NCBI GenBank assembly: GCA_965262615.1
Contig: OZ253545.1
Coordinates: forward strand, 756,776 to 820,775
Reading direction: 5' to 3'
Source: Alphaproteobacteria bacterium
GTDB lineage: Bacteria; Pseudomonadota; Alphaproteobacteria; GM7ARS4; G965262615
DNA length: 64,000 bases
The position numbers and the translations under genes were made by a program. The stretch's first letter is position 1, and the number at the start of each line of letters is the position of its first letter. The notes under the pieces are model-generated. The model was not told the DNA's origin and searched no databases. It worked only from the letters and a program-made list of their open reading frames with translations. Positions 625-58,421 of the stretch are shown here, in pieces.

Positions 625-2427
625 ATGGCAATTCGGGCGTTATCGGATCGGGTGATTAGTTTGATTGCGGCGGGGGAGGTGATTGTGCGTCCTGCCTCAG
701 CCATGCGAGAATTGGTGGAGAACAGTCTGGATGCGTCGGCAACGCGTGTGGCGGTGCGCATTGAGGGTGGCGGAGCGTCTCTCATTGAGGTGGAAGATGA
801 TGGCACGGGCATTGTTGCCGATGAATTGGCGTTGGCGGTGGCGCGCCATGCCACATCCAAGCTGCGAGATGATGACATTGAATCCATTGCCACAATGGGA
901 TTTCGCGGCGAAGCACTGGCGGCAATGGGCGCGGTGTCCCATTTGACTGTTGCCTCGCGCGCCAAAGACAGTGAGCACGGAGCATCCATCAGCGTCAATT
1001 ATGGCAAGAGTGAAGAGATGCGTCCGTTGGCGATGGCGCAGGGGACAAAGGTGTCATTGCAAGATTTATTTGCCAAAGTGCCTGCGCGTCTCAAATTTTT
1101 GAAAAAGCCGCAGACAGAAAACGGACACCATCTGGATGCCTTGCAACGCTTGGCGATTGCCTTTCCCGATGTGGTTTTTTCCCTGCATTTTGACGGCAAG
1201 CAGAAACTGATGCTGCCCGCCAGTGATGTGGCGGCACGGGTGCGTGAGATTCTGGGCGAGGAATTGATGGACAACAGTCTTTTGTGTGAGGGCGGTCGTG
1301 ATCATAGCCATGTGAAGGGGTATGCGTCTTTGCCGACATATTCGGCGGCGAGCAGTTCGTTGTTGTATTGTTATGTGAATCGCCGTCCTGTGCGGGATCG
1401 GCTGGTGACGGCGGCGGTGCGCGCGGCCTATGGCGATAGTCTGCCGCGCGGCCGCCATCCGATGGGCGTGCTCTTTCTTTCCATTGCGTCGGAGTGGGTG
1501 GATATGAATGTGCATCCCACCAAGGCGGAGGTGCGTTTTCGCGATCCCTATGGGGTGCGCACACTGATTGTTCACACCATTCGTGATGCCATCGGACGCG
1601 GCGGGGCGCGCGTGGCATCGTCTGTTCATGAGCGCGCCGCCGCCATCGTCCATAAGACCAAAGCAACACCACCACCGATGCCTGCAAGTATGCCTGCAAG
1701 GCGTTCCTCACAACCAATGGACGAGACACCGTCATTGCCTCTGGTGATGTCATCGCAGCCATCGCCGCCGTCATCTCCGCCTGCCGATTTTGCCGCATCG
1801 CCACAGGAGACCACTCCTTTGACGCAGTCGCCGTTGGGGGACGCGGTGGCACAAATTCATGACATGTACATCGTGGCACAAACGGCGCGCGGCATGGTGC
1901 TGGTGGATCAGCATGCCGCCCATGAGCGTATTGTGTATGAAAAACTCAAACAACAATGGCGGGCGGGAGAGGTGACTTCGTATGCTTTGCTGGTGCCGGT
2001 TGTTGTTCATATGGCACGCGCCGAACAGATGGCGGTGCTGCAAGCCAAAGAAATGCTGTTCAAGTGGGGATTTGCGGTGGATGAATTTGGCAAGGAAGCC
2101 ATCACCGTGCGCACCGTGCCTCAGCTATTGAAAGATGTTGCCATTGAAAAGCTCATCAAAGAACTGGCGCAATGCCTGCTACCAAACGGCAGTGATGACG
2201 AAAAACAGCGAGCCGAGGAACAAATTGAGCGGACGCAAGAGGCGGTTCTTTCATTGGTGGCGTGTCATGGTTCGGTGCGTGCGGGGAGAGTCATGAACAA
2301 AAGCGAGATGAATGCCCTGTTGCGCTCCATTGAACAGACACCATTGGCGGGGCAATGCAATCACGGCCGCCCTGTGTATGTGGAATTCAGCAGCCAACAG
2401 TTGGGACGCTTTTTTGACCGTCACTGA
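625..2427 (+). CDS. mutL: DNA mismatch repair protein MutL
   Basis: GHKL ATPase N-terminus (IAAGEVIVRPASAMRELVENSLDA, EDDGTGI, GFRGEAL), a Pro/Ser-rich linker, and a C-terminal dimerisation domain (DQHAAHERIVYE, CHGSVRAG, QCNHGRP). ATG 625 was chosen because the conserved N-terminus MAIRALSDRVI begins there; the tracked ORF start at 541 overlaps pgi. Confidence 0.95.
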   Translation: MAIRALSDRVISLIAAGEVIVRPASAMRELVENSLDASATRVAVRIEGGGASLIEVEDDGTGIVADELALAVARHATSKLRDDDIESIATMGFRGEALAAMGAVSHLTVASRAKDSEHGASISVNYGKSEEMRPLAMAQGTKVSLQDLFAKVPARLKFLKKPQTENGHHLDALQRLAIAFPDVVFSLHFDGKQKLMLPASDVAARVREILGEELMDNSLLCEGGRDHSHVKGYASLPTYSAASSSLLYCYVNRRPVRDRLVTAAVRAAYGDSLPRGRHPMGVLFLSIASEWVDMNVHPTKAEVRFRDPYGVRTLIVHTIRDAIGRGGARVASSVHERAAAIVHKTKATPPPMPASMPARRSSQPMDETPSLPLVMSSQPSPPSSPPADFAASPQETTPLTQSPLGDAVAQIHDMYIVAQTARGMVLVDQHAAHERIVYEKLKQQWRAGEVTSYALLVPVVVHMARAEQMAVLQAKEMLFKWGFAVDEFGKEAITVRTVPQLLKDVAIEKLIKELAQCLLPNGSDDEKQRAEEQIERTQEAVLSLVACHGSVRAGRVMNKSEMNALLRSIEQTPLAGQCNHGRPVYVEFSSQQLGRFFDRH

Positions 2428-2697
2428 ATTGGTGCTTTGAATTGGTGCTTTGAATTGATGCTTTGAATTGATGCTTTGAATTGGTGCTTTGAATTGATGC
2501 TTTGAATTGGTGCTTTGAATTGGTGCTTTGAATTGGTGCTTTGAATTGATGCTTTGAATTGATGCTTTGAATTGGTGCTTTGAATTGATGCTTTGAATTG
2601 GTGCTTTGAATTGATGCTTTGAATTGGTGCTTTGAATTGGTGCTTTGAATTGGTGCTTTGAATTGATGCTTTGAATTGGTGCTTTGAATTGATGCTT
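2425..2697. repeat. perfect head-to-tail tandem array of a 13-bp unit TGAATTG[G/A]TGCTT, 21 copies
   Basis: Counted directly. The units start at 2425 and recur every 13 bp up to 2685. The only variable position is base 8, and the G/A pattern is GGAAGAG GGAAGAG AGGGAGA. The first unit contains the mutL stop codon, and the array ends 42 nt upstream of the putative xoxF -35 box. Confidence 0.97.
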
Positions 2698-2738
2698 TTA
2701 ATAACCATTCTCAATTTGTTAAATTGTTAAAAAATCTC

Positions 2739-5516: not shown

Positions 5517-6338
5517 ATGATGCGTTGTCTTGGATTCCTTGTTTGCTTCGTGGGGATGCTGTGGAGCACGCAGATTCATGCGCGTGCCACCTCTATTCAG
5601 GCGGTGGATGCCGAGACTTTGCGCGTCTGTGCTGACCCCGCCAACATGCCCTTTTCCAACAAGGAGCAAGAAGGCTTTGAAAATGACATCGCTCGCTTGC
5701 TGGCACAATGGCTGAAGAAAGACCTCTCCTATGATTGGTTTCCTCAAGCCATTGGCTATGTGCGCAACACTCTGAACAAGAAACGCTGCGATGTTTTTAT
5801 CGGCATGCCCACGGGCAGTGATTTGGTTCTCAACACCAATCCTTATTATCGCTGGGGGTATAGCATGGTGTATCGCAGTGATGCGGGCATTGAGGTGGAT
5901 CGCCCTGACCATCCGCAGCTGGCGGAATTGCGGATTGGCGCAGTGGCGGGAACGCCGCCCAACTATGTGCTGCACCTGCACAACTTGATGGGACGGGTGC
6001 GTCCTTACAAATTGATTTTTGACACCCGTCTGCGCTCCATTGCTCATGAGATGGTTTTGGATTTGAAAAATGGCTTTGTGGATATTTTATTCATGGCGGA
6101 TATTTTGGCTGCCCATTATGCTCGTGAGGAGGGACTGGACATCACCATGATTCCCATCACCAGCACGGAGCAAAATGATTATGGCAAGGTGGAATTTTTG
6201 ATGGCGATGGGGGTGCGTCACGGCGAGAATGATTGGAAGCGGTTGCTCAACAGTTTTTTGCGTGAGGAAAAAGATGCCATTGGTGCCATTTTGCAAAAGC
6301 ACCAAATTCCCGTGCGTCCCGTTCGCCCAGCGCGCTAA
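5517..6338 (+). CDS. xoxJ: quinoprotein-dehydrogenase-associated periplasmic solute-binding protein (XoxJ/MxaJ family)
   Basis: Signal peptide, the motif LRVCADPANMPFSN typical of MoxJ-like type 3 binding proteins, and gene order xoxF-G-J. Confidence 0.8.
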   Translation: MMRCLGFLVCFVGMLWSTQIHARATSIQAVDAETLRVCADPANMPFSNKEQEGFENDIARLLAQWLKKDLSYDWFPQAIGYVRNTLNKKRCDVFIGMPTGSDLVLNTNPYYRWGYSMVYRSDAGIEVDRPDHPQLAELRIGAVAGTPPNYVLHLHNLMGRVRPYKLIFDTRLRSIAHEMVLDLKNGFVDILFMADILAAHYAREEGLDITMIPITSTEQNDYGKVEFLMAMGVRHGENDWKRLLNSFLREEKDAIGAILQKHQIPVRPVRPAR

Positions 6339-8754: not shown

Positions 8755-10808
8755 GAGACTTTAGCTTGTTTTCTTTTGAGTTTTTTCTTGGCAATGGCAC
8801 GGCTTCCGCCGCCACTCAATAAATGGTTTTCTTGTAGCTCGCGAATGGTGTCGCGTAGTCTTGCCGCGTTTTCAAATTCTAAATGCTCCGCCGCGGCAAT
8901 CATGTCTTTGGTGAGCCGCGCCACCGCTTGTTCCACCGATTCGCCCTCTTGTTGGGCATCATTTCTTGCGACTTGCAAATTCATTTCGCCGTAGTCGCGC
9001 TCGCACATGTCATCAATAATATTGCTGACGCTCTTTTGCACCGATTGCGGCGAGATGTTGTGTTTTTTGTTATATGCCAGTTGTTTTTCTCGTCTGCGCG
9101 CGGTTTCATCAAGCGCGTGCTGCATGGACGGGGTGACGCTGTCACCATACAGAATCGCTTGTCCATCCTGATGGCGAGCGGCGCGTCCGATGGTTTGCAC
9201 CAATGATGTGTGGGAGCGCAAAAAACCCTCCTTGTCGGCATCCAAAATGGCAACAAGGCTGCATTCGGGAATGTCCAAGCCCTCGCGCAACAGATTGATG
9301 CCAATGAGCACATCAAACACGCCCAAGCGCAAATCACGAATGATGGCAATGCGCTCCAGTGTGTCAATGTCCGAGTGCAGATAGCGGGCATTGATGCCGC
9401 ACTCGCCCACATACTCACTCAGTTTCTCCGCCATGCGCTTGGTGAGTGTGGTGACAAGCGCGCGCTGTCCCTTGCCAATCACCTGGCGCAAGCTGGCAAT
9501 GAGGTCATCCACCTGCGTGGATGCCGCCCGCACATGGCACACGGGATCCATCAATCCTGTGGGGCGCACGATTTGCTCAACGCATGTATGGGTTGCTTGC
9601 TCCCGCTCCCATGTGGCGGGGGTGGCAGAGACAAAAACAGTCGGCGGACGCATGCCATCCCATTCGGCAAACATCAGCGGACGATTGTCCATGCACGAGG
9701 GCAGGCGAAAGCCATGCGCCGATAAGGTCTCTTTGCGGCTGCGATCCCCCTTGTACATCGCTCCCAGCTGCGGCACGCTCACATGGGATTCATCCACAAT
9801 GAGCAGGGATTCGTCTGGAAAGTATTCAAACAATGTGGGCGGCGGCGCACCGCGTGTTCGTCCCGTGAGATGGCGCGAGTAGTTCTCAATGCCTTGACAA
9901 CTGCCGGTGGCGGCAATCATCTCCAAATCATAATGAGTGCGCTGACGCAACCGTTCCGCCTCCAGCAGCTGATTGTTGCCCTCCAATTGGGCAAGGCGTT
10001 CTTGCAGTTCTTGGCGAATGGTGGTCATGGCTCGCTTGAGGGCTGGCTTGGGCGTGACATAGTGGCTGTTGGCATAAATGCGAATAAAATTCAGCGTCGC
10101 ACTGATGCTGCCGTCCAGCGGGTCGCATTCGTGAATGGTCTCCACCTCATCGCCAAACAAGGACAATCGCCAGATTTTATCCTCATAGTGAGAGGGAAAG
10201 ACTTCAATGGAATCGCCGCGCGCTCTGAATGTGCCGCGCTTGAGTTCTATGTCATTGCGGCGATAGTGCAGTTCGGTCAGGCGTTTGAGAAAGGCACTGC
10301 GCGGCAGAGTCATGCCGCGAGCGATGTCAATCACCATTGAGCCATAGGTTTCGCGGTCACCAATGCCGTAGATGCACGAGACGCTGGCGATGATAATCAC
10401 ATCAGACCGTTCAAACAGGGCGCGAGTGGCATCATGACGCATGCGGTCAATCTGTTCGTTGATGGTGGATTCCTTTTCTATGTAGGTGTCCGAAGAGGGA
10501 ACATAGGCTTCGGGCTGATAGTAGTCATAATAAGAGACGAAATAATGAACGCCATTGTGAGGGAAAAAATTCTTCATCTCGCCATAGAGTTGCGCCGCCA
10601 GAATTTTGTTGGGCGCAAGAATGAGGGTGGGCTTTTTGTAACGCTCAATGACATTCGCCATCGTGAATGTTTTGCCGGAGCCCGTGACTCCCAGCAGCAC
10701 TTGGCTTTTTTTGCCTTGCTTGAGTCCATCCAGCAGAGCGTCACAGGCGGCGGGCTGGTCGCCAGCGAGGACAAAATCGGACTCTATGACAAAATCATTG
10801 TGTTGCAT
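8751..10808 (-). CDS. uvrB: excinuclease ABC subunit B
   Basis: AGDQP, GVTGSGKTFT, DESH box (IVDESHV), helicase C motifs, and a C-terminal UVR domain (FENAARLRDTIRELQ). ATG 10808 (MQHNDFV...) fits the conserved N-terminus; the tracked start 10835 is an alternative. Confidence 0.95.
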   Translation of the reverse strand: MQHNDFVIESDFVLAGDQPAACDALLDGLKQGKKSQVLLGVTGSGKTFTMANVIERYKKPTLILAPNKILAAQLYGEMKNFFPHNGVHYFVSYYDYYQPEAYVPSSDTYIEKESTINEQIDRMRHDATRALFERSDVIIIASVSCIYGIGDRETYGSMVIDIARGMTLPRSAFLKRLTELHYRRNDIELKRGTFRARGDSIEVFPSHYEDKIWRLSLFGDEVETIHECDPLDGSISATLNFIRIYANSHYVTPKPALKRAMTTIRQELQERLAQLEGNNQLLEAERLRQRTHYDLEMIAATGSCQGIENYSRHLTGRTRGAPPPTLFEYFPDESLLIVDESHVSVPQLGAMYKGDRSRKETLSAHGFRLPSCMDNRPLMFAEWDGMRPPTVFVSATPATWEREQATHTCVEQIVRPTGLMDPVCHVRAASTQVDDLIASLRQVIGKGQRALVTTLTKRMAEKLSEYVGECGINARYLHSDIDTLERIAIIRDLRLGVFDVLIGINLLREGLDIPECSLVAILDADKEGFLRSHTSLVQTIGRAARHQDGQAILYGDSVTPSMQHALDETARRREKQLAYNKKHNISPQSVQKSVSNIIDDMCERDYGEMNLQVARNDAQQEGESVEQAVARLTKDMIAAAEHLEFENAARLRDTIRELQENHLLSGGGSRAIAKKKLKRKQAKVS

Positions 10809-12140: not shown

Positions 12141-12785
12141 TTATTTGATATATCCCTGGGCAATTAAAATAGTGACAGTAATGCCCCCAAACCACATCAA
12201 GATGTTTACTTTGCCTGTGAGAACTTGCATCTTTGTGTCCAAAGATTGAATTGATTTGATGACATCTGACATAGTCCAGACCTCTGAAGAAATGAGAGAC
12301 TCCACATCGGCTCCACCAAGCTCTGTTTTGCCTTGAAGGGGACCCGAATAGCGTTTTATGCTGGGTTTTGCCAATCTGTGTATTTCCAAAGTGAGAAAGT
12401 CTTCTTTGAAGGTAAAGGTGACGCGGCGGGAAGTTGGGTTGACAATCCTAGCAAACAATCTGCCGTGAAAACCTGGATCAATTTGTGCACCTGTTGTGGC
12501 ATAAATTCCTTTTCTGGCAAGACCAGAGGTCAGATCAAAACGAGCGGCGTGGCTCTGATTGATTGCGATTATTTCATGAGTGCCGATAATGGCAGAGTCA
12601 CCAGCCTCAACAATGATAAAACCTTTTTCAGAAATATCTTCTATTTTCTTTCCTTGAATGGTTGCTCCCTGTTTGCCCACGCGCAAATCGTAGGATGCGG
12701 GCTGCAATTGCCTGTCTTCATAATCAGAAATCTCAATCCCGCCATTATCAAGAGCTTCTTTAATCCCTTTGTCTGACAAAATCAT
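12141..12785 (-). CDS. dCTP-deaminase/dUTPase-fold protein with a C-terminal transmembrane anchor (paralog 1)
   Basis: MILSDKGI, QPASYDLRVG, TSGLARKGI and IDPGFHG resemble Dcd. The C-terminal hydrophobic stretch is ILMWFGGITVTILIAQGYI. The region is A+T-rich. Confidence 0.6.
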   Translation of the reverse strand: MILSDKGIKEALDNGGIEISDYEDRQLQPASYDLRVGKQGATIQGKKIEDISEKGFIIVEAGDSAIIGTHEIIAINQSHAARFDLTSGLARKGIYATTGAQIDPGFHGRLFARIVNPTSRRVTFTFKEDFLTLEIHRLAKPSIKRYSGPLQGKTELGGADVESLISSEVWTMSDVIKSIQSLDTKMQVLTGKVNILMWFGGITVTILIAQGYIK

Positions 12786-19400: not shown

Positions 19401-20759
19401 ATGAAATGCAAAATTAAGGATTGGGAAATAGGCGAGTTTGACAGTCGCAAACATAAGATAAATTTTGATCCCCCATATCAAAGAACTGAGAAGGCTTGGG
19501 ATGAAAAAATGCAACAGTTGTTGATTGACTCCATCATCAATGGCTATGACATCCCTAAGATTTATCTCCACAAATTAGCGGATGGTGGGTACGATGTTAT
19601 TGATGGCAAGCAACGCCTAACGGCTATATTTCGCTTTCTTAACAATGAATTTGGACTTGCCATTGCTAAGGGGAAAAATAATGGCTTTGAACTGACTGCG
19701 CCGTCTTTAAATGATTTTGAAGCCCGAGACCCTGAGCAAGGGAATATTTTTGATGATTTATCAACAGCATGGCGCGATAAAATCATGGATTTTTCTGTTA
19801 CAGTAACCATTGTTAGTGATGCTGATGAACTGGAAGTTAAAGGCTTTTTTGCTCGCTTGAACAAAGGGAAACAAGTTAATAATACAGAGCTCAGGCGTTC
19901 AATTGGCGGGACTCTTATGAATTCAATTAAAAGGCTGGCAAAGGATGATTTCTTCACAAAGAAAACGAAATTGTCCAATGACAGATTGATGATGGAAGAT
20001 ATTGCCACTAAATTTATTCTGATTGAAGATCTTGCCAATTTTTCTCATCCAGAACACAAACCGTATCAGGATTTGAAAAGGGAAGATCTTGATAAAGTTG
20101 TTAGACGCTACAAACAAGAAGAGGATAGCCAAAAAGTCAAAACATTGGAAAAAATTAAAACATTGGAAAAAATGGCAAAATCCAATCTTCAAGTAATGAA
20201 AGATGTATTTGAAGATAATTCGCCCCTATTGGCACAAAGCTCTATTCAGCTTTATTATCTCTTTATAAGAAAAATAAAGCTTGAATATGGTCACGAAAAT
20301 TTGAAAGGCTTGCTCAAGTCCTTTTTAGAGGATTTTGAGGTTGAGCGTCTGCTTGTAAGAGCCAAAACGAAAAGTGATGATGTTAAACCCGTAAATTTGA
20401 ATGAGGAAGAATTGTTTCGGGAACATAGAATACGGCGATTTATTTTAGACCAATCTAAATCCAACGATAAGAAAAGCTTGGAGCGACGAGTAGATACTCT
20501 GACAGGCTTTTTCATTGAAAAACATCCTGATGTTTTTGTTGTTGTTCGCAAAGATGAAAAGAGGCTTTTTACAAAGGATGAAAGGTTTATCATTTTTAAG
20601 CTGAGTGGTGGAAAATGTGCCAATTGTGGAAAAATATTTAAGGATTTTTCCGACTTTGATGCTGACCATGTCATTTCATGGGCAAAGGGGGGTCCCACCA
20701 CCATCGCCAATGCCCAAGCTTTGTGCAAAAGTTGCAACAGAAGCAAAGGCGCGCGCTAA
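19401..20759 (+). CDS. DUF262 (ParB/Srx-fold, DGQQR-type) + C-terminal HNH endonuclease; GmrSD-like type IV restriction candidate
   Basis: N-terminus FDPPYQR...LIDSIINGYDIPKIY...VIDGKQRLTAI, C-terminus DADHVISWAKGGPTTIANAQALCKSCNRSKG. GGAGG precedes the ATG. The sequence is strongly A+T-rich and carries an 18-bp in-frame tandem duplication at 20139-20174 (KTLEKI/KTLEKM). Confidence 0.8.
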   Translation: MKCKIKDWEIGEFDSRKHKINFDPPYQRTEKAWDEKMQQLLIDSIINGYDIPKIYLHKLADGGYDVIDGKQRLTAIFRFLNNEFGLAIAKGKNNGFELTAPSLNDFEARDPEQGNIFDDLSTAWRDKIMDFSVTVTIVSDADELEVKGFFARLNKGKQVNNTELRRSIGGTLMNSIKRLAKDDFFTKKTKLSNDRLMMEDIATKFILIEDLANFSHPEHKPYQDLKREDLDKVVRRYKQEEDSQKVKTLEKIKTLEKMAKSNLQVMKDVFEDNSPLLAQSSIQLYYLFIRKIKLEYGHENLKGLLKSFLEDFEVERLLVRAKTKSDDVKPVNLNEEELFREHRIRRFILDQSKSNDKKSLERRVDTLTGFFIEKHPDVFVVVRKDEKRLFTKDERFIIFKLSGGKCANCGKIFKDFSDFDADHVISWAKGGPTTIANAQALCKSCNRSKGAR

Positions 20760-29344: not shown

Positions 29345-31048
29345 TTATGGCGTGGGTTTCAATAGGGCGATGGCTTCTTGGTTGTCTTTGAGTACTGCAT
29401 TTTGTTGCAAGACTTCATAGGGGGGGCAACCAAACCTGTCTTCGGCTTTAACATCCGCGCCCGCTTTTATGAGTTCTCCAATGGCATCAATGCTTATATT
29501 CATGAGTGCGGCATAATGAAGTGGTGTGTGACCATTATTGTTTCTGACATTAAGATCTGCTCCTGCTTTAGTGAGCTCTCTGATGAGATGAGCATTGTCA
29601 CTTAATGCAGCAGCGTGAAGTGGTGCGAAGCCATCTTCGCTTTTTGCATGAATGTCTGCTCCCGCCCTGATGAGTTCTTTGATGACATGAACATTGCCAC
29701 TATTTGAAACAACAACATGAAGTGGTGTGTGACCAATGTTGTTTTTGGCATTGACATCTGCCCCTGTGTTGATGAGTTCTTTGATGACATGGACATTGTC
29801 ATTGTGTTCAGCAGCAGTATGAAGAGGTGTAACATCATTGTTGGTTTTGGCATTGATATCTGCCCCTGCGTTGATGAGTTCTTTGAAGATATGAGCATTG
29901 TCATTGTTTTTAGCAGCTAGATGAAGTGGTGTGCCACCATCGTTGTTTTTAGCATGAATGTCTGCTCCTGCGTTGATGAGTTCCTTGATGACATGAGGAT
30001 TGTCATTTTTCCCAGCAGCATAATGAAGTGGTGTGAGATCATTGTTTTTGTTCTTGGCATTAACATCTGCTCCTGCTTTAATGAGTTCTTTGATGACATG
30101 AACATTGACATTGTTTGCAGCAGCATAATGAAGTGGTGTGAGATCATTGTTGTTGCTTTTGTCGTGAATATCTGCTCCTGCATTGATGAGTTCTTTGATG
30201 ACATGAACATTGACATTGTTTACAGCAGCAACATGAAGTGGTGTGTGACCATTGTTTTCTCTAGCACTAACATCTGCTCCCGCTTCAATGAGCTCCCTAA
30301 TAGCCTTAATGCTTGCACCATGTAATGTGGCACCATGAAGTGGTGTGCTACCATTGTTGTCTTTTGCATTGACATCTGCTCCTGCGTTGATGAGTTCTTT
30401 GATTATATGAGGATTGTCTTTTAAAGCAGCAACATGAAGTGGTGTAGAACCATTTTCGTTTTTGGCATTGACATCTGCTCCTGCGTTGATGAGTTCTTTT
30501 ATGAGTTCTTTGGTGACCTGAGGATTGTCATCGATGACATCAGGATTGTCATTGTATCCAGTAGTAGCATAATGAAGTGGAGTGAGACCATCGTTGCTTT
30601 TGGCATGGGTGTCTGCTCCCGCTTTTATGAGTTCTTTGAGGGCATAAGAATTGTTATTGAATGCGGCACAATGAAGTGGAGTGAGACCATCGTTGCTTTT
30701 GGCATGGATGTCTGCTCCCGCTTTTATGAGTTCCCCAATAACTTTAATGCTGATATTTGTGAACGCAGCACAATGAAGTGGTGTGCCGCCCCATTTGTCT
30801 TTGGCATGAATGTCTGCCCCTGCATTGATGAGTTTTTTGATGACATGAGGATTGCGATTGTTTGTAGCGGCACAATGAAGTGGTGTGCTATCATTGTTAC
30901 CTTCGGCATTGACATCAACCCCAGCTGCAATGAATTTTTGCAATTGCTCAAGCGTTAGTTCTTTCCAAAAATGGTCGTCTTGCCACTTACTCCATCCACC
31001 ATCAGCGATGTTTCGCAATTGAGCGAGTAGTTTTTCTTTGATGCCCAT
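29345..31048 (-). CDS. ankyrin-repeat protein (about 14 ANK repeats)
   Basis: I counted fourteen x-TPLH-x-A(A) cores, each followed by VIKELINAGADxxAK (33-aa periodicity). No signal peptide is evident. The sequence is A+T-richer than its flanks. Confidence 0.9.
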   Translation of the reverse strand: MGIKEKLLAQLRNIADGGWSKWQDDHFWKELTLEQLQKFIAAGVDVNAEGNNDSTPLHCAATNNRNPHVIKKLINAGADIHAKDKWGGTPLHCAAFTNISIKVIGELIKAGADIHAKSNDGLTPLHCAAFNNNSYALKELIKAGADTHAKSNDGLTPLHYATTGYNDNPDVIDDNPQVTKELIKELINAGADVNAKNENGSTPLHVAALKDNPHIIKELINAGADVNAKDNNGSTPLHGATLHGASIKAIRELIEAGADVSARENNGHTPLHVAAVNNVNVHVIKELINAGADIHDKSNNNDLTPLHYAAANNVNVHVIKELIKAGADVNAKNKNNDLTPLHYAAGKNDNPHVIKELINAGADIHAKNNDGGTPLHLAAKNNDNAHIFKELINAGADINAKTNNDVTPLHTAAEHNDNVHVIKELINTGADVNAKNNIGHTPLHVVVSNSGNVHVIKELIRAGADIHAKSEDGFAPLHAAALSDNAHLIRELTKAGADLNVRNNNGHTPLHYAALMNISIDAIGELIKAGADVKAEDRFGCPPYEVLQQNAVLKDNQEAIALLKPTP

Positions 31049-33505: not shown

Positions 33506-34648
33506 ATGAGTAGCAGAGCAACGGTAGAGAATATCAATCCAACAATTCTGCGGCAGTGTCGCGAGCAGATGGGACTGAGCTTGGGTGATGTCCGCAAAAA
33601 AATCGCTTCAATTGAAAAAATTGAAAACGGCGATAAGAAGCCCACCTTTAATCAAATTGATCAACTTGCTGAACTCTATCTTGTGCCAAGATGGGTTTTT
33701 ATTGCTGATAATTTGCCGCACGAATATCAATTTGATAAATCCATTCCCGCCTTTCGTCAATTTAAGGATTCCAATCATGATGTTTTTTCTGATTATAAGG
33801 TGCGCGCTCTGGTGACGCGTCTTGAGCGTATGCGTGAATTTGCCATTGAATTACGCCGTGATATGGATGAACCCATTGCTAGATTTAAACCACCCGCACA
33901 AGGGAGCACAATAGAACAGACGGCGGCGAATGTGCGTCGGTGGCTTGGTGTGACCGATGATGAACACCTTGAATTTGATGATTGGAGAGGCAAAATTGAA
34001 CAAAAAAATATTTTTGTTTTCAAAACGAATTCAATGAGCAATTGGTCAACAATAAGGCTTGATGAATTTTGTGGTTTTGCTTTGTATCATTCCGTATTCC
34101 CTGTTATTGTCATCAATGGTTCAGATTGGAAAAAAACACAGTCCTTTACGCTTTTTCATGAATTGGGTCATGTTATGAGGAAGCAGAATGCCATGGATGG
34201 ATGGAATTCCTATGGCGATGTAGAGCAATGGTGTAATGAATTGGCGGGTTGTGTTTTGATGCCAAGAAAATCTTTGGAAAAACAAGAATTATTGTCTTTT
34301 GATATAGACAATATAGAACAAATTGAAACGGCAGCTCGGAAATTCAAGGTGAGCATCTACGCTTTTTTGGTGAGGTTGCGTCAATTGGGTCAAATCAACA
34401 GGACGCAGTATTCCGATTTTGAAGAACAAATGAGGGAAATCCATGAGCAGGAAAAGCTTGAGAAAAAAAAGGGGGAAGTGCGAATTCCGCGCAGGATTCC
34501 TCATGAAGTGATTCAACAGTATGGCAGCATCTACTTGAAGACATTGTTCCAAGCTTATTACGAAAAAGAGATTGGCTTGCATAGATTGTGCCAATTGTTG
34601 AGTGTCAAGAGAGCTTCATACATCAAAGATATAGAGGAAAAATTATGA
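33506..34648 (+). CDS. XRE-type HTH + ImmA/IrrE (COG2856) zinc metallopeptidase domain protein
   Basis: N-terminal HTH (LRQCREQMGLSLGDVRKKI) and the HExxH motif FHELGHV. Confidence 0.8.
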   Translation: MSSRATVENINPTILRQCREQMGLSLGDVRKKIASIEKIENGDKKPTFNQIDQLAELYLVPRWVFIADNLPHEYQFDKSIPAFRQFKDSNHDVFSDYKVRALVTRLERMREFAIELRRDMDEPIARFKPPAQGSTIEQTAANVRRWLGVTDDEHLEFDDWRGKIEQKNIFVFKTNSMSNWSTIRLDEFCGFALYHSVFPVIVINGSDWKKTQSFTLFHELGHVMRKQNAMDGWNSYGDVEQWCNELAGCVLMPRKSLEKQELLSFDIDNIEQIETAARKFKVSIYAFLVRLRQLGQINRTQYSDFEEQMREIHEQEKLEKKKGEVRIPRRIPHEVIQQYGSIYLKTLFQAYYEKEIGLHRLCQLLSVKRASYIKDIEEKL

Positions 34649-35168: not shown

Positions 35169-35244
35169 TGGCTCCGGCGGCAGGACTTGAACCTGCGACC
35201 CAGCGGTTAACAGCCGCTTGCTCTACCAACTGAGCTACACCGGA
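35169..35244 (-). tRNA. tRNA-Asn (anticodon GTT), CCA encoded
   Basis: Folded by hand. The acceptor stem is TCCGGTG/CGCCGGA, the D-arm TAGCTCAGTTGGTAGAGC, the anticodon loop CTGTTAA, and the T-arm GGTTCAAGTCC. It ends in CCA and is 76 nt long. Confidence 0.93.
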
Positions 35245-35304
35245 CCACCACGATGACTCTAGCAAAAAGGCGGGTCATCGCCAAGATGCTTGAGGCAAAA
35301 AAAG

Positions 35305-35375
35305 AGGCGCGAGTCGGAATCGAACCGGCCTAGACGGATTTGCAGTCCGCTGCATAACCACTCTGCCATCGCGCC
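35305..35375 (-). tRNA. tRNA-Cys (anticodon GCA), CCA not encoded
   Basis: GGCGCGATGGCAGAGTGGTTATGCAGCGGACTGCAAATCCGTCTAGGCCGGTTCGATTCCGACTCGCGCCT closely parallels E. coli tRNA-Cys. The anticodon loop is CTGCAAA. Confidence 0.92.
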
Positions 35376-51102: not shown

Positions 51103-51719
51103 TGGCGCAGAGCTTGCTGCACCGACTCATTGATTCTCTTGCGCGCCTGCCTGGTTTGGGTCCTCGTTCGGCACGGCGCATTGCGTTTCATCTCTTGCGT
51201 CATAGGGATTCTCTCATGACACCTCTGGCGCACATCCTCACCCAAAGCGCACAGCAGATTATGGCGTGTCGCCACTGTGGCAACTGGGATGAGTGCGATC
51301 CGTGTCATTTGTGTGATGATGAAAGCCGTGACAGCCACTCATTGTGTGTGGTGGAGCAAGTATCAGACTTATGGGCTTTGGAGCGGGCGGCGATGTATCA
51401 GGGGCGTTATTTTGTTTTGGGAGGCACTTTATCGGTCTATCGCGAAATGAATCCCGAATTGTTGCGCCTGCCTCAATTGGTGCAATGGATTGAGCGTCAT
51501 GATGTGCAAGAGGTCATTCTTGCCACCAATGCCACTGTGGATGGACAAATGACCGCCGACTACATTGTGTCTATGCTCACCGAGCATTATGGGGAGCGTT
51601 TGCGGGTGTCTCACTTGGCGCGCGGGCTTCCTGTGGGAGGCGAACTGGACTATTTGGATGATGGCACTCTGGCGGCGGCTTTCACCGAGCGCATTCGCTC
51701 TGAGGTGGAGTCAAAATAA
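51102..51719 (+). CDS. recR: recombination protein RecR
   Basis: LPGLGPRSARRIAFHLL (HhH motif), the C4 zinc finger CRHCGNW...CHLC, and a Toprim region. Confidence 0.93.
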   Translation: MAQSLLHRLIDSLARLPGLGPRSARRIAFHLLRHRDSLMTPLAHILTQSAQQIMACRHCGNWDECDPCHLCDDESRDSHSLCVVEQVSDLWALERAAMYQGRYFVLGGTLSVYREMNPELLRLPQLVQWIERHDVQEVILATNATVDGQMTADYIVSMLTEHYGERLRVSHLARGLPVGGELDYLDDGTLAAAFTERIRSEVESK

Positions 51720-52636
51720 TGCGTTTTGCGTTGTGGTGTGTGGGTGTGCTGAGTTTGTCTGCGTTTGACGCGCTCGCCGATACGCCACTGTCTTTTGCAC
51801 TGGATGAGGGGGAGTCTGTGGAGATTGGGGCACAGGGAGATATTACTTGGTCAGAGGTGCATCACAGTTTGACGGCGCGCAAATCGGCTTTTGTGGCACA
51901 GGGGCAGCAGCGCGTGGATGCCGACACCATCTTTTTCTTTTTCGCCGATGACCCATCGCAAGATGGCATGGATTCTTTGCAATTGGTCTCAATGGATGCG
52001 GCAGGAGAAGTGCATATTCAAAACGCTCGTAGCCGCGCCACGGCACAGCGTGCCAATTATCATGCGACAACGCGCGTTCTCACTCTTTATGCCGATGAGG
52101 CAGAAGAGGTCTGGCTTTATTTTCCCGACAGAAAGTTTGAACTCACCGCCAAGCAGCAATTGGTTTATGATGACATCAAAGGGCGCGCCCATGCCACAGG
52201 AGGCACGCTTTTTACCCATCACCAATTCACGCTGCACAGTGATGAGCTCATTGCTTTCATGACGGATGCGCCCAATCGTGCCATGGCGGCGTTGCGTGCC
52301 AATCATGGCGTGATTTTGCGTCATCCCCAAGGGCAGTTGCAAGGCAAGCACGGCGTGTACGACCTTGCCGCCAATGTGGTCACCATGAGTGGCGATGTGC
52401 GTCTGACCAGTGACGGTAAGGAATTTGCGGGTGATTACGGAATTTTTAATTTGCGGACGGGAGTCAGTCGCTTGGTTTCATTTGCCGAAGCCGAGCATTT
52501 GCGCGCCCGCTACAAAGCCCCCATTGAGCGCACCGTTCGCACTGAGATGGGCAGTGACTCAAAACGCCCCACGGCTGTCATCACCATCAATCCCAACGGT
52601 GCACAAGAAAACGAACCATCCAGCGAGCAGCAATGA
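51719..52636 (+). CDS. lptA: LptA/OstA-family periplasmic LPS-transport protein (long form)
   Basis: Signal peptide, and repeated OstA-like beta-jellyroll patterns (A..A.Y......L.L.G.V.L). lptB lies downstream. Confidence 0.6.
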   Translation: MRFALWCVGVLSLSAFDALADTPLSFALDEGESVEIGAQGDITWSEVHHSLTARKSAFVAQGQQRVDADTIFFFFADDPSQDGMDSLQLVSMDAAGEVHIQNARSRATAQRANYHATTRVLTLYADEAEEVWLYFPDRKFELTAKQQLVYDDIKGRAHATGGTLFTHHQFTLHSDELIAFMTDAPNRAMAALRANHGVILRHPQGQLQGKHGVYDLAANVVTMSGDVRLTSDGKEFAGDYGIFNLRTGVSRLVSFAEAEHLRARYKAPIERTVRTEMGSDSKRPTAVITINPNGAQENEPSSEQQ

Positions 52637-52858
52637 TTAGCCTCTGCGAACGGGCTTGCCTTTAAGTGCCTGTTCATACTCCCATTTGGCGGCAGATGCT
52701 CGCGTGACCCTATGCCCCACTTGGAAAATATGACCTTTTTTGCCGTATGTTCGCTTATGCTCCTCTTCGCGTCGTTGAAGATCATTGGTGATGCCCGTAT
52801 GGATGATCCTGTTACCTTTTTTGAAATGGTACTTATAGATGCACTTATCCTGATACAT
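52637..52858 (-). CDS. mini GIY-YIG-like protein (73 aa), paralog A
   Basis: CIYKYHF..GNRIIHTGITNDLQRREEEH...KWEYEQ follows the GIY...YIG...R...H...E order. AAGGAG lies 7 nt before ATG 52858 (the tracked start 52876 is a TTG). The stop codon abuts the lptA stop. Confidence 0.55.
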   Translation of the reverse strand: MYQDKCIYKYHFKKGNRIIHTGITNDLQRREEEHKRTYGKKGHIFQVGHRVTRASAAKWEYEQALKGKPVRRG

Positions 52859-52893
52859 GACAAACTCCTTCAGCAAGATGGGGTGCTGATTCC

Positions 52894-52921
52894 AGTATAG
52901 TCTTTATTTGTGTTTTTTCAA
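52894..52921 (-). promoter_or_regulatory. near-consensus sigma70 promoter for paralog A (TTGAAA, 16-nt spacer, TATACT)
   Basis: On the minus strand, -35 is at 52916-52921 and -10 at 52894-52899. Confidence 0.5.
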
Positions 52922-52938
52922 TTGAGCAGGAATAATTA

Positions 52939-53151
52939 TTAGTGAATAGGCGTTCCTTGCCGTGCTTGTTCATGTTCCCATTTGACAGCATCGTATCGCG
53001 TCACTCTGTCCCCCACTCTCTCAACAGAACATTGGGAATTTTCCTGCTCATATTCTTTTTCAATGAGTTCAATATCTTTGGTGATGCCCGCATAGACAAT
53101 CTTGCCATCTACTTTCAAAAAGTAACGATAAATGCACCTGTCCTTATACAT
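52939..53151 (-). CDS. mini GIY-YIG-like protein (70 aa), paralog B (degenerate motifs)
   Basis: CIYRYFL..DGKIVYAGITKDIELIEKEY...KWEHEQ. The Arg and His positions of paralog A are replaced. GAGGGAG precedes ATG 53151. Confidence 0.5.
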   Translation of the reverse strand: MYKDRCIYRYFLKVDGKIVYAGITKDIELIEKEYEQENSQCSVERVGDRVTRYDAVKWEHEQARQGTPIH

Positions 53152-53186
53152 GACAAACTCCCTCAATAAAATGGACTGCTGATGCC

Positions 53187-53215
53187 AATATAGTCTTTAT
53201 TTGTGTTTTTTTCAA
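53187..53215 (-). promoter_or_regulatory. near-consensus sigma70 promoter for paralog B (TTGAAA, 17-nt spacer, TATATT)
   Basis: On the minus strand, -35 is at 53210-53215, abutting the stop codon of the 167-aa gene, and -10 is at 53187-53192. Confidence 0.5.
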
Positions 53216-53719
53216 TTATGAATTTGCATAATATGCCTGAATTTTTTTCAAAATGAGCAAAGTAATTTTAGCAAATTGATTGATATCAAAGGTGACTTCC
53301 CACTTCGCTTCTATTTTATTATTGGGATTTTCACCCGTCATGGTGACAGAAGACGCATAGTGGTAAGCATATGCGTGAATAACCTTATGACATAATGGCA
53401 AAAAATAAATTGTTTCTTTTTCTTTCTTACCTTCTTTGCTGGTCATCAGAATCGTGCCACATTTCTCGTCATCAAAAGTACTGAGAATTTTTTCTTTTTG
53501 CTTTCTTTTTTCCTCATTTTTGTCGGCAAGTGTTTGTTCGTTTAATTTACGCATAAAGACGGCGATGATGATGAGCGATTTGGTGGCTGTTTCATTCAAT
53601 GTGTCGTGATGGGAAGGTGTGTTCAATGACTGCATATTTTCTTTTGCCGCAAGAATGGCTTGCAAAAGATAAAGTTCCTTGTGCAATTCGGCAACATTGA
53701 AAAGGAATTGAGCATTCAT
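53216..53719 (-). CDS. hypothetical protein (167 aa), no recognisable domain
   Basis: An uninterrupted ORF in very A+T-rich DNA with a central Lys/Glu-rich segment (KNEEKRKQKEK). It is the first gene of the lptA|lptB islet. Confidence 0.45.
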   Translation of the reverse strand: MNAQFLFNVAELHKELYLLQAILAAKENMQSLNTPSHHDTLNETATKSLIIIAVFMRKLNEQTLADKNEEKRKQKEKILSTFDDEKCGTILMTSKEGKKEKETIYFLPLCHKVIHAYAYHYASSVTMTGENPNNKIEAKWEVTFDINQFAKITLLILKKIQAYYANS

Positions 53720-53795
53720 GTCACCATCATAGACAATGCAATGATGATTGTGAAGTTGGCATCACTGTGCTAGTGTGCGTTTCGTTGTGTGATTG

Positions 53796-54590
53796 ATGGC
53801 GACAGGAAAAACAAAAAAACGCAATCTATCGGTGGTTCGCGAGGGACTGGCGGTTGAGCACATCACCTATGAGGTGGGTCGTCGGCGCATTGTGCGGGAT
53901 GTGAGTTTGCATGTGGGGCGCGGCGAGGTGGTGGCGTTGTTGGGCCCCAATGGGGCGGGTAAGACCAGCACCTTTCATTCCATCACGGGTGTGGTGCGTC
54001 CGCGACGAGGAACGGTGTGGCTGGATGGCTATGATGTGACGGGCTTGCCGATGTATCGCCGTTCTCGCTTGGGTCTTGGTTATTTGCCGCAGGAGTCTTC
54101 CATTTTTCGCGGCATGAGTGTCAGTGACAACATCATGGCGATTTTGGAGATTGTGGAGAGTGATGCCCTCAAGCGTCGCACCACATTGGATGAGTTGCTG
54201 GCGGAGTTTTCCATTTCGCACTTGGCGGAGGCGGAGTCTGTGTCGTTATCGGGTGGTGAGCGTCGGCGTTTGGAGATTGCTCGCTGTCTTGCGTCAGAGC
54301 CTCGCTACATGTTGTTGGATGAGCCGTTGGCGGGGATTGATCCCATTGCGGTCAATGATATTCGTCACTTGGTGGCGCGTCTGAAAAATCGGGGTCTGGG
54401 GGTTTTGATCACCGACCATAATGTGCAGGAGACCCTTGCCATCTCAGATCGCGCCTACATCATTCATGACGGCACGATTTTGCGCGAGGGCACGCCTGAT
54501 GACATCATCAAGGATGAGACCGTTCGCAGCGTGTATTTGGGTGATGATTTCTCGCCGTCTCATTTTGCCACTCTTCGTGCTCGGCGGTGA
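53796..54590 (+). CDS. lptB: LPS export ABC transporter ATP-binding protein
   Basis: GPNGAGKTS, LSGGERRRLEIAR, LLDEP, and the LptB-like YLGDDF C-terminus. Confidence 0.9.
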   Translation: MATGKTKKRNLSVVREGLAVEHITYEVGRRRIVRDVSLHVGRGEVVALLGPNGAGKTSTFHSITGVVRPRRGTVWLDGYDVTGLPMYRRSRLGLGYLPQESSIFRGMSVSDNIMAILEIVESDALKRRTTLDELLAEFSISHLAEAESVSLSGGERRRLEIARCLASEPRYMLLDEPLAGIDPIAVNDIRHLVARLKNRGLGVLITDHNVQETLAISDRAYIIHDGTILREGTPDDIIKDETVRSVYLGDDFSPSHFATLRARR

Positions 54591-56899: not shown

Positions 56900-58063
56900 A
56901 TGACTGTTATTACCAGACCCGCTATTGAAGTAACGCAGGGCAGATACAAATTGTATCTGACATCCTTTACTGCCGAGCATTTTAACATGGCTGATTTTTA
57001 TGATGTTAAGAAATTAAATATTGACGCAGAAGGTGGCTATCAAAGAGGTTTGCAAGAAACGCGCGTCAAAAGGTTTGTTACAGACATTGTCCGAGCCTCT
57101 CACGATTCGAGGGCAGCTACCGAAGATAATAATTTCGGGTCGTGCTTTTATCCCACATCGGTTTTTTTGACAACAGAACATGATGTGAAATATGACGATG
57201 AGAAGAGAGAAATATTATTTGACACAAGCATTTGTCCTTTCAACATTGTGGATGGTCAGCATCGTGTGGAGGCTTTGCGGAAAGCCAGTAACGGGAATAC
57301 CGCTTTGGATGATTTTCCCATGCCCGTCACACTGGCAACCAACCTCAAGGAAGTGGAACAAATGCTTCAATTTTTGATTGTGAATAGCCAACAAAAGAAG
57401 GTTGAAAAAGGAGTGGAGCAACACATTTATGCGCGTTTATGCGATATGCAAACACTTAAACCAATGCCTTTTTTGCCAGGAGTGGTGGAAAGAGAAGTAG
57501 GAAAGGGCTTATATCGTGAGTGTTTTGACATTGTCAAATTTCTGAATAATGAAGAAACTTCTCCTTGGAAAGGAAAAATTGTCATGGCTGATGATGACCC
57601 TAAAAAGAAAGGTGTTAAACAAGCTGCGTTTGTGGGTAGTTTGAAAAGGTATATTTTTGCCCAAGGCAACCTTTTGCATGAGAAAAAGGATGATATTCGT
57701 TATGTGAAAAATTTTCTTTTGAACTACTGGATCGCTTTAACCGAATTCGCATCTCGGGACATTCGTATTGAGTCTGATTCAAATATTTTCAAAACAAATG
57801 GACTAAACTTTTTTCATGAAATTTCTAGCCTTTTTGCAGAAAAGTGCTTGAATAATGATGATGCGACAGTCCCCACAATTAGAGGATATTTTGAGGGGGT
57901 GAACGACTGTGCGTTGGAATTGGGAAATGAAAAGGTGGTAAAATTGATGGCATCTGCAAATTGGGCGAAAGGTGGTGAATTTGGTAAATTGAATCTAGGG
58001 GGCATTAGGGGCAAGGCTAGTGAATATAGTGCAATTTTTAAGAGTTGGGATTTAGGATTCTAG
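56900..58063 (+). CDS. DGQHR-domain protein (DndB-like, ParB/Srx-fold)
   Basis: YQRGLQETRVKRF ... NIVDGQHRVEALR ... EQMLQFLIVNSQQKKV. The ATG lies 12 nt after the mdh stop, preceded by AAGGA. The sequence is A+T-rich. Confidence 0.75.
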   Translation: MTVITRPAIEVTQGRYKLYLTSFTAEHFNMADFYDVKKLNIDAEGGYQRGLQETRVKRFVTDIVRASHDSRAATEDNNFGSCFYPTSVFLTTEHDVKYDDEKREILFDTSICPFNIVDGQHRVEALRKASNGNTALDDFPMPVTLATNLKEVEQMLQFLIVNSQQKKVEKGVEQHIYARLCDMQTLKPMPFLPGVVEREVGKGLYRECFDIVKFLNNEETSPWKGKIVMADDDPKKKGVKQAAFVGSLKRYIFAQGNLLHEKKDDIRYVKNFLLNYWIALTEFASRDIRIESDSNIFKTNGLNFFHEISSLFAEKCLNNDDATVPTIRGYFEGVNDCALELGNEKVVKLMASANWAKGGEFGKLNLGGIRGKASEYSAIFKSWDLGF

Positions 58064-58079
58064 GCAGTGAGCTCAACCT

Positions 58080-58421
58080 TTGAATATTGCTAATTTAACC
58101 CCTCAAGTTGAGCACAAAGTATCCTTTAGTGGCAGAGAGCTTTTGTCCGTTCCTAAAGAGGCGGGTTGCTATGTGCTGACCAATTTTAGTGGTGAGATTT
58201 TTTATATTGGTAGGGCTAAAGATTTGTGCAGACGCATGGCACAGCATTTAGAAAATCCAAAGATGAGACAGCGAATTACTGCAGGCAAGGCAACTCAATT
58301 CCACTATCGCTTGTGTGAGGTCAAAGAGCTTCCCTATCTTGAAAGAGGCTGGATGAACGAGTATAGAATGAATAATGGTGGCAGGTTGCCCCCTTTTAAT
58401 GAGGTGGATGCTGCCATCTAA
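58080..58421 (+). CDS. GIY-YIG nuclease domain protein (113 aa)
   Basis: GCYVLTN..GEIFYIGRAKDLCRRMAQH ... LERGWMNEY..N gives the full motif set. The only in-frame starts before the domain are TTG (58080 or 58143). Confidence 0.65.
   Translation: MNIANLTPQVEHKVSFSGRELLSVPKEAGCYVLTNFSGEIFYIGRAKDLCRRMAQHLENPKMRQRITAGKATQFHYRLCEVKELPYLERGWMNEYRMNNGGRLPPFNEVDAAI

Follow-up and report, generated by a model that had tools for sequence, protein, structure and literature searches.

In Escherichia coli the lipopolysaccharide (LPS) transport genes lptA and lptB lie 6 nt apart, whereas in the alphaproteobacterial assembly GCA_965262615.1 (contig OZ253545.1) they are separated by 1.16 kb of A+T-rich DNA with three genes on the opposite strand, one for a protein of 167 amino acids (aa) and two for small GIY-YIG-like paralogs, here termed mini genes (copies A and B). 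The locus raises the question of which of these genes belong together, where they came from and what they might do. The stretch analysed, hereafter the window, comprises 64,000 nt (positions 756,776 to 820,775 of the contig). An earlier note on this DNA had taken lptA and lptB to be normally contiguous and had suggested that copies A and B form an active/inactive pair, possibly nuclease plus decoy or toxin plus antidote. Our analysis points elsewhere: the conserved functional unit is the 167-aa gene (the partner gene) together with one mini gene, not the A/B pair. The islet is a horizontally acquired accessory cassette that stands outside the LPS-transport operon, and we lean towards reading it as a conflict module (anti-phage defence, or an addiction or toxin-antitoxin-like function) made up of a partner of ~170 aa and a basic mini GIY-YIG protein.

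Anatomy of the islet

Three open reading frames (ORFs) of 167 aa, 70 aa (copy B) and 73 aa (copy A) occupy the minus strand between lptA and lptB. The features of the islet and its flanks are given below; promoter-like sites come from a consensus scan and ribosome-binding sites (RBSs) were read from the sequence.

51719-52636, plus strand: LptA/OstA-like gene (305 aa), left flank; Pfam LptD_N, E 2.9e-10
52637-53215, minus strand: tandem array of two promoter + RBS + gene units of 293-296 nt each
52637-52858, minus strand: mini GIY-YIG copy A (73 aa from ATG, isoelectric point (pI) 10.2, net charge +11); family motif residues all intact
52865-52870, minus strand: RBS AAGGAG of copy A, 6 nt ahead of ATG; kept in relatives
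52894-52921, minus strand: promoter-like site TTGAAA-16-TATACT before copy A; kept in the related loci L001, L086, L087 and L088
52924-52935, minus strand: 12-nt remnant of the lptA tail inside the array, TTATTCCTGCTC (reverse complement of the last lptA codons and stop)
52939-53151, minus strand: mini GIY-YIG copy B (70 aa from ATG, pI 6.1, net charge -1.3); divergent, R29L, R30I, H34Y
53158-53164, minus strand: RBS GAGGGAG of copy B, 6 nt ahead of ATG
53187-53215, minus strand: promoter-like site TTGAAA-17-TATATT before copy B
53216-53719, minus strand: partner gene (167 aa), of an uncharacterised family of ~170-aa proteins
53726-53754, minus strand: promoter-like site TTCACA-17-TATGAT before the partner gene, in a 76-nt divergent region shared with lptB
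53796-54590, plus strand: lptB (264 aa), right flank; Pfam ABC_tran, 55% identical to LptB of E. coli (E 8e-87)

The three minus-strand genes, the 293-bp tandem duplication, the RBSs, the promoter-like sites and the A+T-richness are all present as the earlier note had described them. A direct repeat, 72-75% identical at a spacing of 293/296 nt, links the two small genes, the promoter and 5′ untranslated region being 87% identical between the two units and the coding sequence 69%. G+C content (GC) is 0.31-0.44 within the insert as against ~0.55 outside. Partner gene and copy B are 64 nt apart, and the stop codon of copy A (52637-52639) directly adjoins that of lptA (52634-52636), with a 0-nt gap. 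The proposed seamless insertion is in this way borne out at the left junction; six related contigs that extend to the junction and metagenomes of the Joint Genome Institute (JGI) yielded no empty lptA/lptB site. The number of promoter-like sites is not significant by itself, because the region has five and shuffled sequence gives 3.0 +/- 2.0; both TTGAAA sites are kept in all related strains. The consensus scan gave no plus-strand promoter-like site directly upstream of lptB, a scan of the islet for terminator-like sites found none, an Rfam search of the window returned two tRNAs only and nothing inside the islet, and tblastn found no further mini gene copies in the window. A 15-nt inverted repeat (87% complementary; 52581-52595 and 53788-53802) that brackets the islet was considered as a candidate for transposon-like ends and was judged coincidental, since its arms lie at or inside the coding sequences of lptA and lptB and chance alone would give ~5 such seeds in 1.6 kb.

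The mini proteins as probable minimal GIY-YIG domains

The small proteins very probably represent a minimal form of the GIY-YIG domain, of the YhbQ/UPF0213 branch and without the C-terminal part of the canonical domain, which agrees with the GIY-YIG likeness seen earlier. Pfam PF01541 was the top match, below threshold, for 15 of 17 family members at E<=1 (best E 6.3e-5), copy A scoring 16.3 bits, under the gathering cut-off of 22.6. A profile of 35 family members was aligned by hhalign to E. coli YhbQ (b3155; sequence taken from NC_000913.3, annotated as 'DNA damage response nuclease') with a probability of 94.3% and an E value of 9.9e-8, and this alignment spans the GIY...YIG...RR...H region. 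The UPF0213 structure 1zg2 (BH0048) was one of three profile matches to PDB sequences, all non-significant (E 0.2-0.44), and a larger mini-family profile brought no gain (1zg2 at E 0.44). An AlphaFold2 (AF2) model of copy A (pLDDT 86.8) has the order beta-beta-alpha-beta-alpha (strands 7-14 and 17-24, helix 27-38, strand 43-51, helix 53-65), and its best Foldseek matches in the PDB are to the UvrC GIY-YIG domain with a TM-score of 0.54 (TMq), the E value being only 0.8.

Among 92 family sequences Y8, Y10, G22, R29, R30, E33, H34, W59 and E60 are each kept in 83-92. The GIY and YIG motifs appear as Y8-K-Y10 and (H/Y)20-T-G22 (Y8 in 89/92, Y10 in 90/92, G22 in 91/92), with His at position 20 in 78/92 and Tyr in 8/92, and the catalytic Arg and metal-binding Glu as R29 (83/92), R30 (88/92) and E60 (92/92). 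Copy A has Y8, Y10, G22, R29, R30, H34 and E60, and with them the catalytic Arg and the Glu. Copy B carries L29, I30 and Y34 and keeps E60; it has lost the Arg/His positions in this strain, as had been noticed before. An invariant C-terminal Asn was not seen in the alignments, and the protein stops ~10 residues past helix 2. At ~72 aa, compared with 100 aa for YhbQ and 107 aa for BH0048, the mini protein is the smallest GIY-YIG domain seen here, and the C-terminal helix and Asn region are accordingly missing. The family is strongly basic (median pI 10.1, n = 92). From the residues kept, the mini protein may be expected to act as a nuclease. Similar to YhbQ/UPF0213 (PF01541; b3155; 1zg2 BH0048), it is a single-domain GIY-YIG protein with the signature (Y/H)TG(I/Y)TxD(L/V)xRRxxxH. 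It differs from these proteins of ~100 aa in its length and in that the YIG Tyr is mostly His, and its family is restricted to sponge-associated genomes, often coupled to a specific partner and duplicated in arrays.

The 167-aa gene and one mini gene form the recurrent unit

Profile searches found a homologue of the partner directly upstream of the mini gene in ~20 of 82 loci fetched via the mini gene, in Nitrospirales, Latescibacterota, Vicinamibacterales, Gammaproteobacteria, Poriferihabitaceae and others. Partner stop and mini start mostly overlap by 4, 7 or 13 nt or are at most ~10 nt apart. When sampled from the partner side, the pair was found in two of two cases, 4 nt apart, and both of these loci adjoin Eco57I/TaqI_C-type enzymes, Fic, HipA/HipB and an insertion sequence (IS). 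Close homologues of the 167-aa protein are few; a distant one, of 170 aa, is encoded in an unrelated 104-kb contig, where its gene overlaps a mini gene, and several mini loci that appear solo retain partner remnants. The 167-aa protein, which had been treated as a bystander, is therefore the member that pairs with one mini gene across phyla, and this pairing suggests a physical or functional coupling of the two proteins.

At 90% identity the sponge-type clade of the partner family comprises 104 clusters, and at 50% identity the whole family comprises at least 652. That its protein has no recognisable domain was confirmed, as Pfam, NCBIfam, PADLOC and PHROGs gave no significant match and a profile search of PDB sequences no relative. 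In a confident AF2 model (pLDDT 84.6, pTM 0.78) three helices at the N terminus and one at the C terminus accompany a mixed sheet; Foldseek searches of PDB and BFVD returned no convincing structural neighbour, the best being Cache/PAS/GAF-like at a TM-score of 0.25. Invariant or near-invariant residues are R57, C87-G88, C110, I114-H115-A116, Y121 and D145. We also observed that partner length varies among close strains (lengths of 167, 182, 187 and 193 aa occur when the window is compared with L086/L088, P0018, P0021 and P0022), because an insertion repeats the AVFM(R/G)KL segment of helix 2. In another lineage (L093, 4001-4745) a 162-aa partner-like gene is followed after 20 nt by a 78-aa mini-like gene in which the catalytic positions are replaced (TSLAGNLCTEQDRL; W-A for W-E), and this pair sits between adh_short and AdoHcyase genes.

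The mini gene stands alone or with a different partner in ~60 loci. In 26 loci, none of which is a partner locus, it is directly followed by a gene for a single-pass membrane protein of ~65 aa. The pattern of this protein was recorded as LYLQ..S......A...P ... R.D.......D.LW (for example L010 6226-6435 and L007 6217-6474). In L003 and L023 an AAA_15/21 ATPase of 518-522 aa precedes the mini gene; its matches in PADLOC are the candidate HEC-04 (2.9e-40) and PtuA models. An N-terminal extension of ~70 aa, without Pfam match, is joined to the mini domain in the 142-156-aa ORFs of three loci (L025 4691-5119, L032 1624-2094, L051 5776-6204), which may be fusions or may reflect the choice of an upstream start codon. 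The remaining mini loci are solo, and no common DNA was found in the flanks of solo mini genes beyond remnants of the partner or membrane protein gene. Tandem arrays of two or three mini copies recur in unrelated genomes (L001, L032, L047, L049, L069), and dispersed copies occur within one genome (OZ244244.1, CBDBBV010000002.1). In L008 two 99%-identical 300-nt mini units (5973-6272 and 10376-10675) surround a 4.1-kb block that encodes an AAA_15/21 ATPase, a 193-aa protein without assignment, HicB, and PIN with Phd, and a type I M-S fusion gene adjoins; this layout looks like the capture of a cassette between two unit copies.

History of the array among close strains

Six related contigs reach the lptA-lptB junction and the islet is present in all of them, so that it is fixed within a narrow lineage; a seventh (L090) breaks off within lptA and so says nothing about the junction. 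LptB of L086 and L087 is identical to that of the window, and that of L001 and L088 clusters with it at 90%. Synteny of lptA and lptB in relatives is therefore uniform as regards the presence of the islet, but its gene content differs between strains: the window has partner-B-A, L086 partner-A-B′, L087 and L091 partner-B′-B, L001 partner-A-A′ and L088 partner-A only. Copy number and order thus differ between near-identical strains, and L001 and L086 have two motif-intact copies each.

The stop of every cassette is followed by 12 nt (TCATTGCTGCTC or a variant of 1-2 nt) that are the reverse complement of the last three lptA codons and stop, and where the array of the window has its internal remnant, L086 has the lptA tail in exact form (TCATTGCTGCTC). 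Since this piece of lptA stands after every cassette, the unit was duplicated at this locus, once a single cassette already abutted lptA. The comparison shows both in-situ duplication and strain polymorphism of the array.

Copy A shares 65-68% identity with the remaining family members, homologues in other phyla included. B-type copies are closest to A types of the same locus (46-54%) and reach only 44-46% with the others. They are the three least charged of the 92 sequences, copy B of the window being the only net-negative one. Both Arg are missing in only three full-length copies, namely copy B of the window, its L087 allele and one copy of the L069 array, and all three are supernumerary array members. 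The ratio of nonsynonymous to synonymous substitution rates (dN/dS) is 0.2-0.57 in all comparisons, with small counts, and 0.57 for copy B against its L087 allele. Judging from these sequences, copy B is a fast-evolving derivative and probably catalytically dead. The strain comparison makes the contrast of an active and an inactive copy real in this strain, but a derived, strain-level state.

Distribution and genomic neighbourhoods

A scan of bacteria with one genome per species yielded at least 191 confirmed loci of the mini gene. All records that state a source are from sponges or sponge-specific taxa; sponge-linked carriers include Poriferihabitaceae, Spongiihabitans, Poribacteria, a 'symbiont of Poecilosclerida' and the RHO, CAR, COS and STY bins of a demosponge survey (PMC8163846). 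The remaining carrier taxa would fit the usual sponge consortium. Among cultured bacteria, Agaribacillus aureus BMA12 (L084) has a solo homologue. Mini proteins are 55-75% identical across Acidobacteriota, Nitrospirota, Latescibacterota, Gemmatimonadota, Poribacteria, Spirochaetota, Verrucomicrobiota and Alpha- and Gammaproteobacteria, and the GC of the mini gene lies under that of its flanks in 70 of 80 loci. A phage origin was considered and rejected, as 2.9 million viral contigs yielded one weak relative of the mini protein and one of the partner. From its composition, the occurrence of the same cassette in unrelated phyla and contexts, and its polymorphism in copy number and order, the insert is foreign and accessory, as had been supposed. 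The neighbourhoods described below, together with the other islets of the window, are in line with descriptions of sponge symbionts as enriched in defence genes, which are exchanged laterally (PMC8163846; PMC5099237). Our literature search for a GIY-YIG family of sponge symbionts returned nothing relevant.

Recurrent neighbours of mini loci are HsdM (7 loci), HsdR (6), AbiJ_NTD4 (6), Eco57I/MmeI-type enzymes (4), TIR-TPR proteins (4), C5-methylases (3), STAND NTPases (3) and IS66, and further ones are a HEC-04-like ATPase, HipA/HipB, Fic and PIN/Phd. Many solo copies adjoin housekeeping genes such as those for transporters or glyoxalase, and the direct neighbours of the islet in the window are housekeeping genes as well. 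Neither of the two copies, nor the partner, nor any of their homologues matched a PADLOC-DB v2 model; the sole matches were those of the ATPase next to the mini gene in L003 (HEC-04 and PtuA).

Possible functions of the cassette

A role in defence or addiction, which we somewhat favour, is suggested by the kept catalytic residues, translational coupling, the swapping of partners, low GC, patchiness across phyla, neighbourhoods of defence and toxin-antitoxin genes and the fast divergence of extra copies. In such a module the mini protein would supply nucleic-acid cleavage and the partner would control, target or neutralise it, and the small membrane protein or the AAA_15/21 ATPase might replace the partner in other lineages. 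Each mini gene has gained a promoter of its own in this lineage; the promoter-gene unit was duplicated in place by unequal recombination and later shuffled between strains, with extra copies evolving fast and copy B of the window losing the catalytic Arg-Arg/His and its positive charge. Like type II toxin-antitoxin systems, the cassette has two small co-directional genes whose stop and start often overlap, is horizontally mobile and is found among toxin-antitoxin and restriction-modification (RM) genes. It differs from them in that toxin or antitoxin families are not matched, each gene also occurs alone, and the genes in the window are 64 nt apart with their own promoter-like sites; the obligate co-occurrence expected of such systems was not found among the loci surveyed (~20 paired loci versus ~60 in which the mini gene is solo or has another partner). 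The position of the mini gene after an AAA_15/21 ATPase in L003 and L023 recalls the ATPase-nuclease systems Septu (PtuA/PtuB) and HEC-04. The window, in contrast, has no such ATPase, the nuclease is GIY-YIG rather than HNH, and the partner is unrelated to any PADLOC model.

Several observations weigh against a conflict module. PADLOC, NCBIfam and PHROGs link neither protein to defence, and the enrichment in defence genes is a putative one, judged by recurrent neighbours rather than by statistics against random genes. Neither gene strictly needs the other: the mini gene is often solo or differently partnered, and in 80 metagenome loci outside the sponge-type clade the partner superfamily was found solo, with no neighbour conserved. 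Arrays of two or three mini genes per partner, together with solo copies, argue against a potent unregulated toxin. In one intermediate lineage (L093) the partner is paired with a motif-less mini-like protein, so that catalysis may not be the essential property. Finally, the assignment to GIY-YIG itself has a sub-threshold Pfam score, a weak Foldseek E value (0.8) and no evident canonical C-terminal Asn.

Some of the same features would suit a selfish mobile nuclease, in which a ~300-nt unit of promoter and gene, comparable to a free-standing homing endonuclease, nicks or cuts DNA near its own locus, stimulates recombination, spreads and collects cassettes, with the partner as targeting or helper subunit. 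Free-standing GIY-YIG homing endonucleases such as T4 Seg and I-TevI share the catalytic fold, the intergenic insertion between conserved genes (here seamless) and the own promoter. Tandem arrays in unrelated genomes, several dispersed copies per genome, the near-identical units on either side of the ATPase/HicB/PIN-Phd block of L008, the N-terminal extension as a candidate DNA binder in three loci and the crossing of phyla inside one habitat point in the same direction. The 72-aa proteins, however, have no DNA-binding domain; the search for an empty allele or a conserved target sequence gave neither, different loci have nothing in common in their flanks apart from partner genes, the only inverted repeat around the islet is at chance level with terminal repeats absent, and unlike the phage-borne endonucleases the family is nearly absent from viral contigs. 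We regard this explanation as unlikely. In a wider and quite improbable version, the 300-nt unit of promoter and 72-aa GIY-YIG gene would be a minimal self-propagating recombination element without transposase or integrase that, by nicking or cutting DNA beside itself, seeds, duplicates and shuffles small defence islets between housekeeping genes and across the phyla of the sponge microbiome, the 170-aa protein, the membrane protein and the ATPase being its interchangeable specificity or control subunits.

A function in DNA maintenance is comparably unlikely in our view. Here the mini protein would be a short nuclease of the DNA damage response, of the type of its closest characterised relative YhbQ, and the partner an unrelated co-transferred gene; solo copies beside housekeeping genes and purifying selection are consistent with this. 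Patchy spread across phyla, low GC, changes of copy number between strains and fast extra copies would not be expected of a repair gene, and tight coupling to three types of partner along with RM, abortive infection (Abi) and toxin-antitoxin neighbourhoods points to conflict biology. That copies A and B are themselves the functional system, as the earlier note had it, seems very unlikely. The missing R29, R30 and H34 of copy B speak for it, as does the contrast between its negative charge, the only one in the family, and the +11 of copy A, which makes charge complementarity conceivable; copy B is also still somewhat constrained (dN/dS 0.57). An A/B pair is not a conserved design, however: L088 has a single copy, L001 and L086 have two intact ones, the order of slots is shuffled, loss of both Arg is confined to three supernumerary copies, and the partner conserved across phyla is the 167-aa protein. 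Hardly any weight can be given to a decaying remnant with non-functional ORFs. The degenerate copy B and the A+T-rich composition would fit such a dead insertion; six related contigs, however, keep intact ORFs, RBSs and promoter-like sites, dN/dS is below 1, copy A has kept its 65-68% identity to homologues in other phyla, and the conserved residues of the partner are retained.

Other islets in the window

Further A+T-rich islets are found in the window, and the genome appears dotted with single-gene, defence-like islets.

12141-12785, minus strand: dCTP-deaminase-like protein, in an A+T-rich islet between housekeeping genes
19401-20759, plus strand: enzyme with GmrSD_N and HNH domains, in an A+T-rich islet between housekeeping genes
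29345-31048, minus strand: 567-aa ankyrin-repeat protein, in an A+T-rich islet; eukaryote-like, as reported for repeat proteins of sponge symbionts
33506-34648, plus strand: protein with helix-turn-helix (HTH) and Peptidase_M78 domains, in an A+T-rich islet between housekeeping genes and beside two tRNA genes (35172-35375)
56900-58421, plus strand: second A+T-rich islet, between mdh and sucC, with DndB-like and GIY-YIG genes

The mdh-sucC islet encodes a DndB-like protein of 387 aa (Pfam 1.1e-9) and, 16 nt further, a UvrC-type GIY-YIG protein of 113 aa whose Pfam match (1.2e-7) exceeds the threshold; the two form one 524-aa ORF in L088. It is similar to the lptA-lptB islet in lying as A+T-rich DNA between housekeeping genes and in its GIY-YIG domain, but the latter is UvrC-like and above the NCBIfam and Pfam thresholds. 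Kinship with the mini family was considered and found marginal (hhalign probability 15%). Elsewhere in the window (2421-2714, minus strand) a 14-aa unit repeated in tandem (INSKHQFKASIQST) makes up a 97-aa ORF, and the DNA there is A+T-rich (GC 0.41). Judging from the ankyrin-repeat protein and the relatives of the cassette, the host of the window is probably a sponge symbiont.

Significance

Three antisense genes on 1.16 kb without a terminator, placed between lptA and lptB, should affect the expression of this essential operon; presumably either read-through from lptA crosses the islet antisense to its genes, or lptB uses a new promoter. While the fold is known, the 72-aa subfamily, the partner family, their pairing, the pairing with the membrane protein and the sponge-confined spread across phyla appear to be undescribed in Pfam, NCBIfam, PADLOC, PHROGs, PDB and the literature searched. 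If a conflict function is indeed what the cassette provides, it would be an undescribed two-gene module built on the smallest GIY-YIG domain seen here and on an unannotated partner family of at least 652 clusters. The series of strains with one copy, two intact copies, or an intact and a degenerate copy offers a natural set for the role of extra or dead nuclease copies. The mini gene could moreover serve as a marker and test case for the habitat-confined gene flow across phyla that has been proposed for sponge symbionts (PMC8163846).

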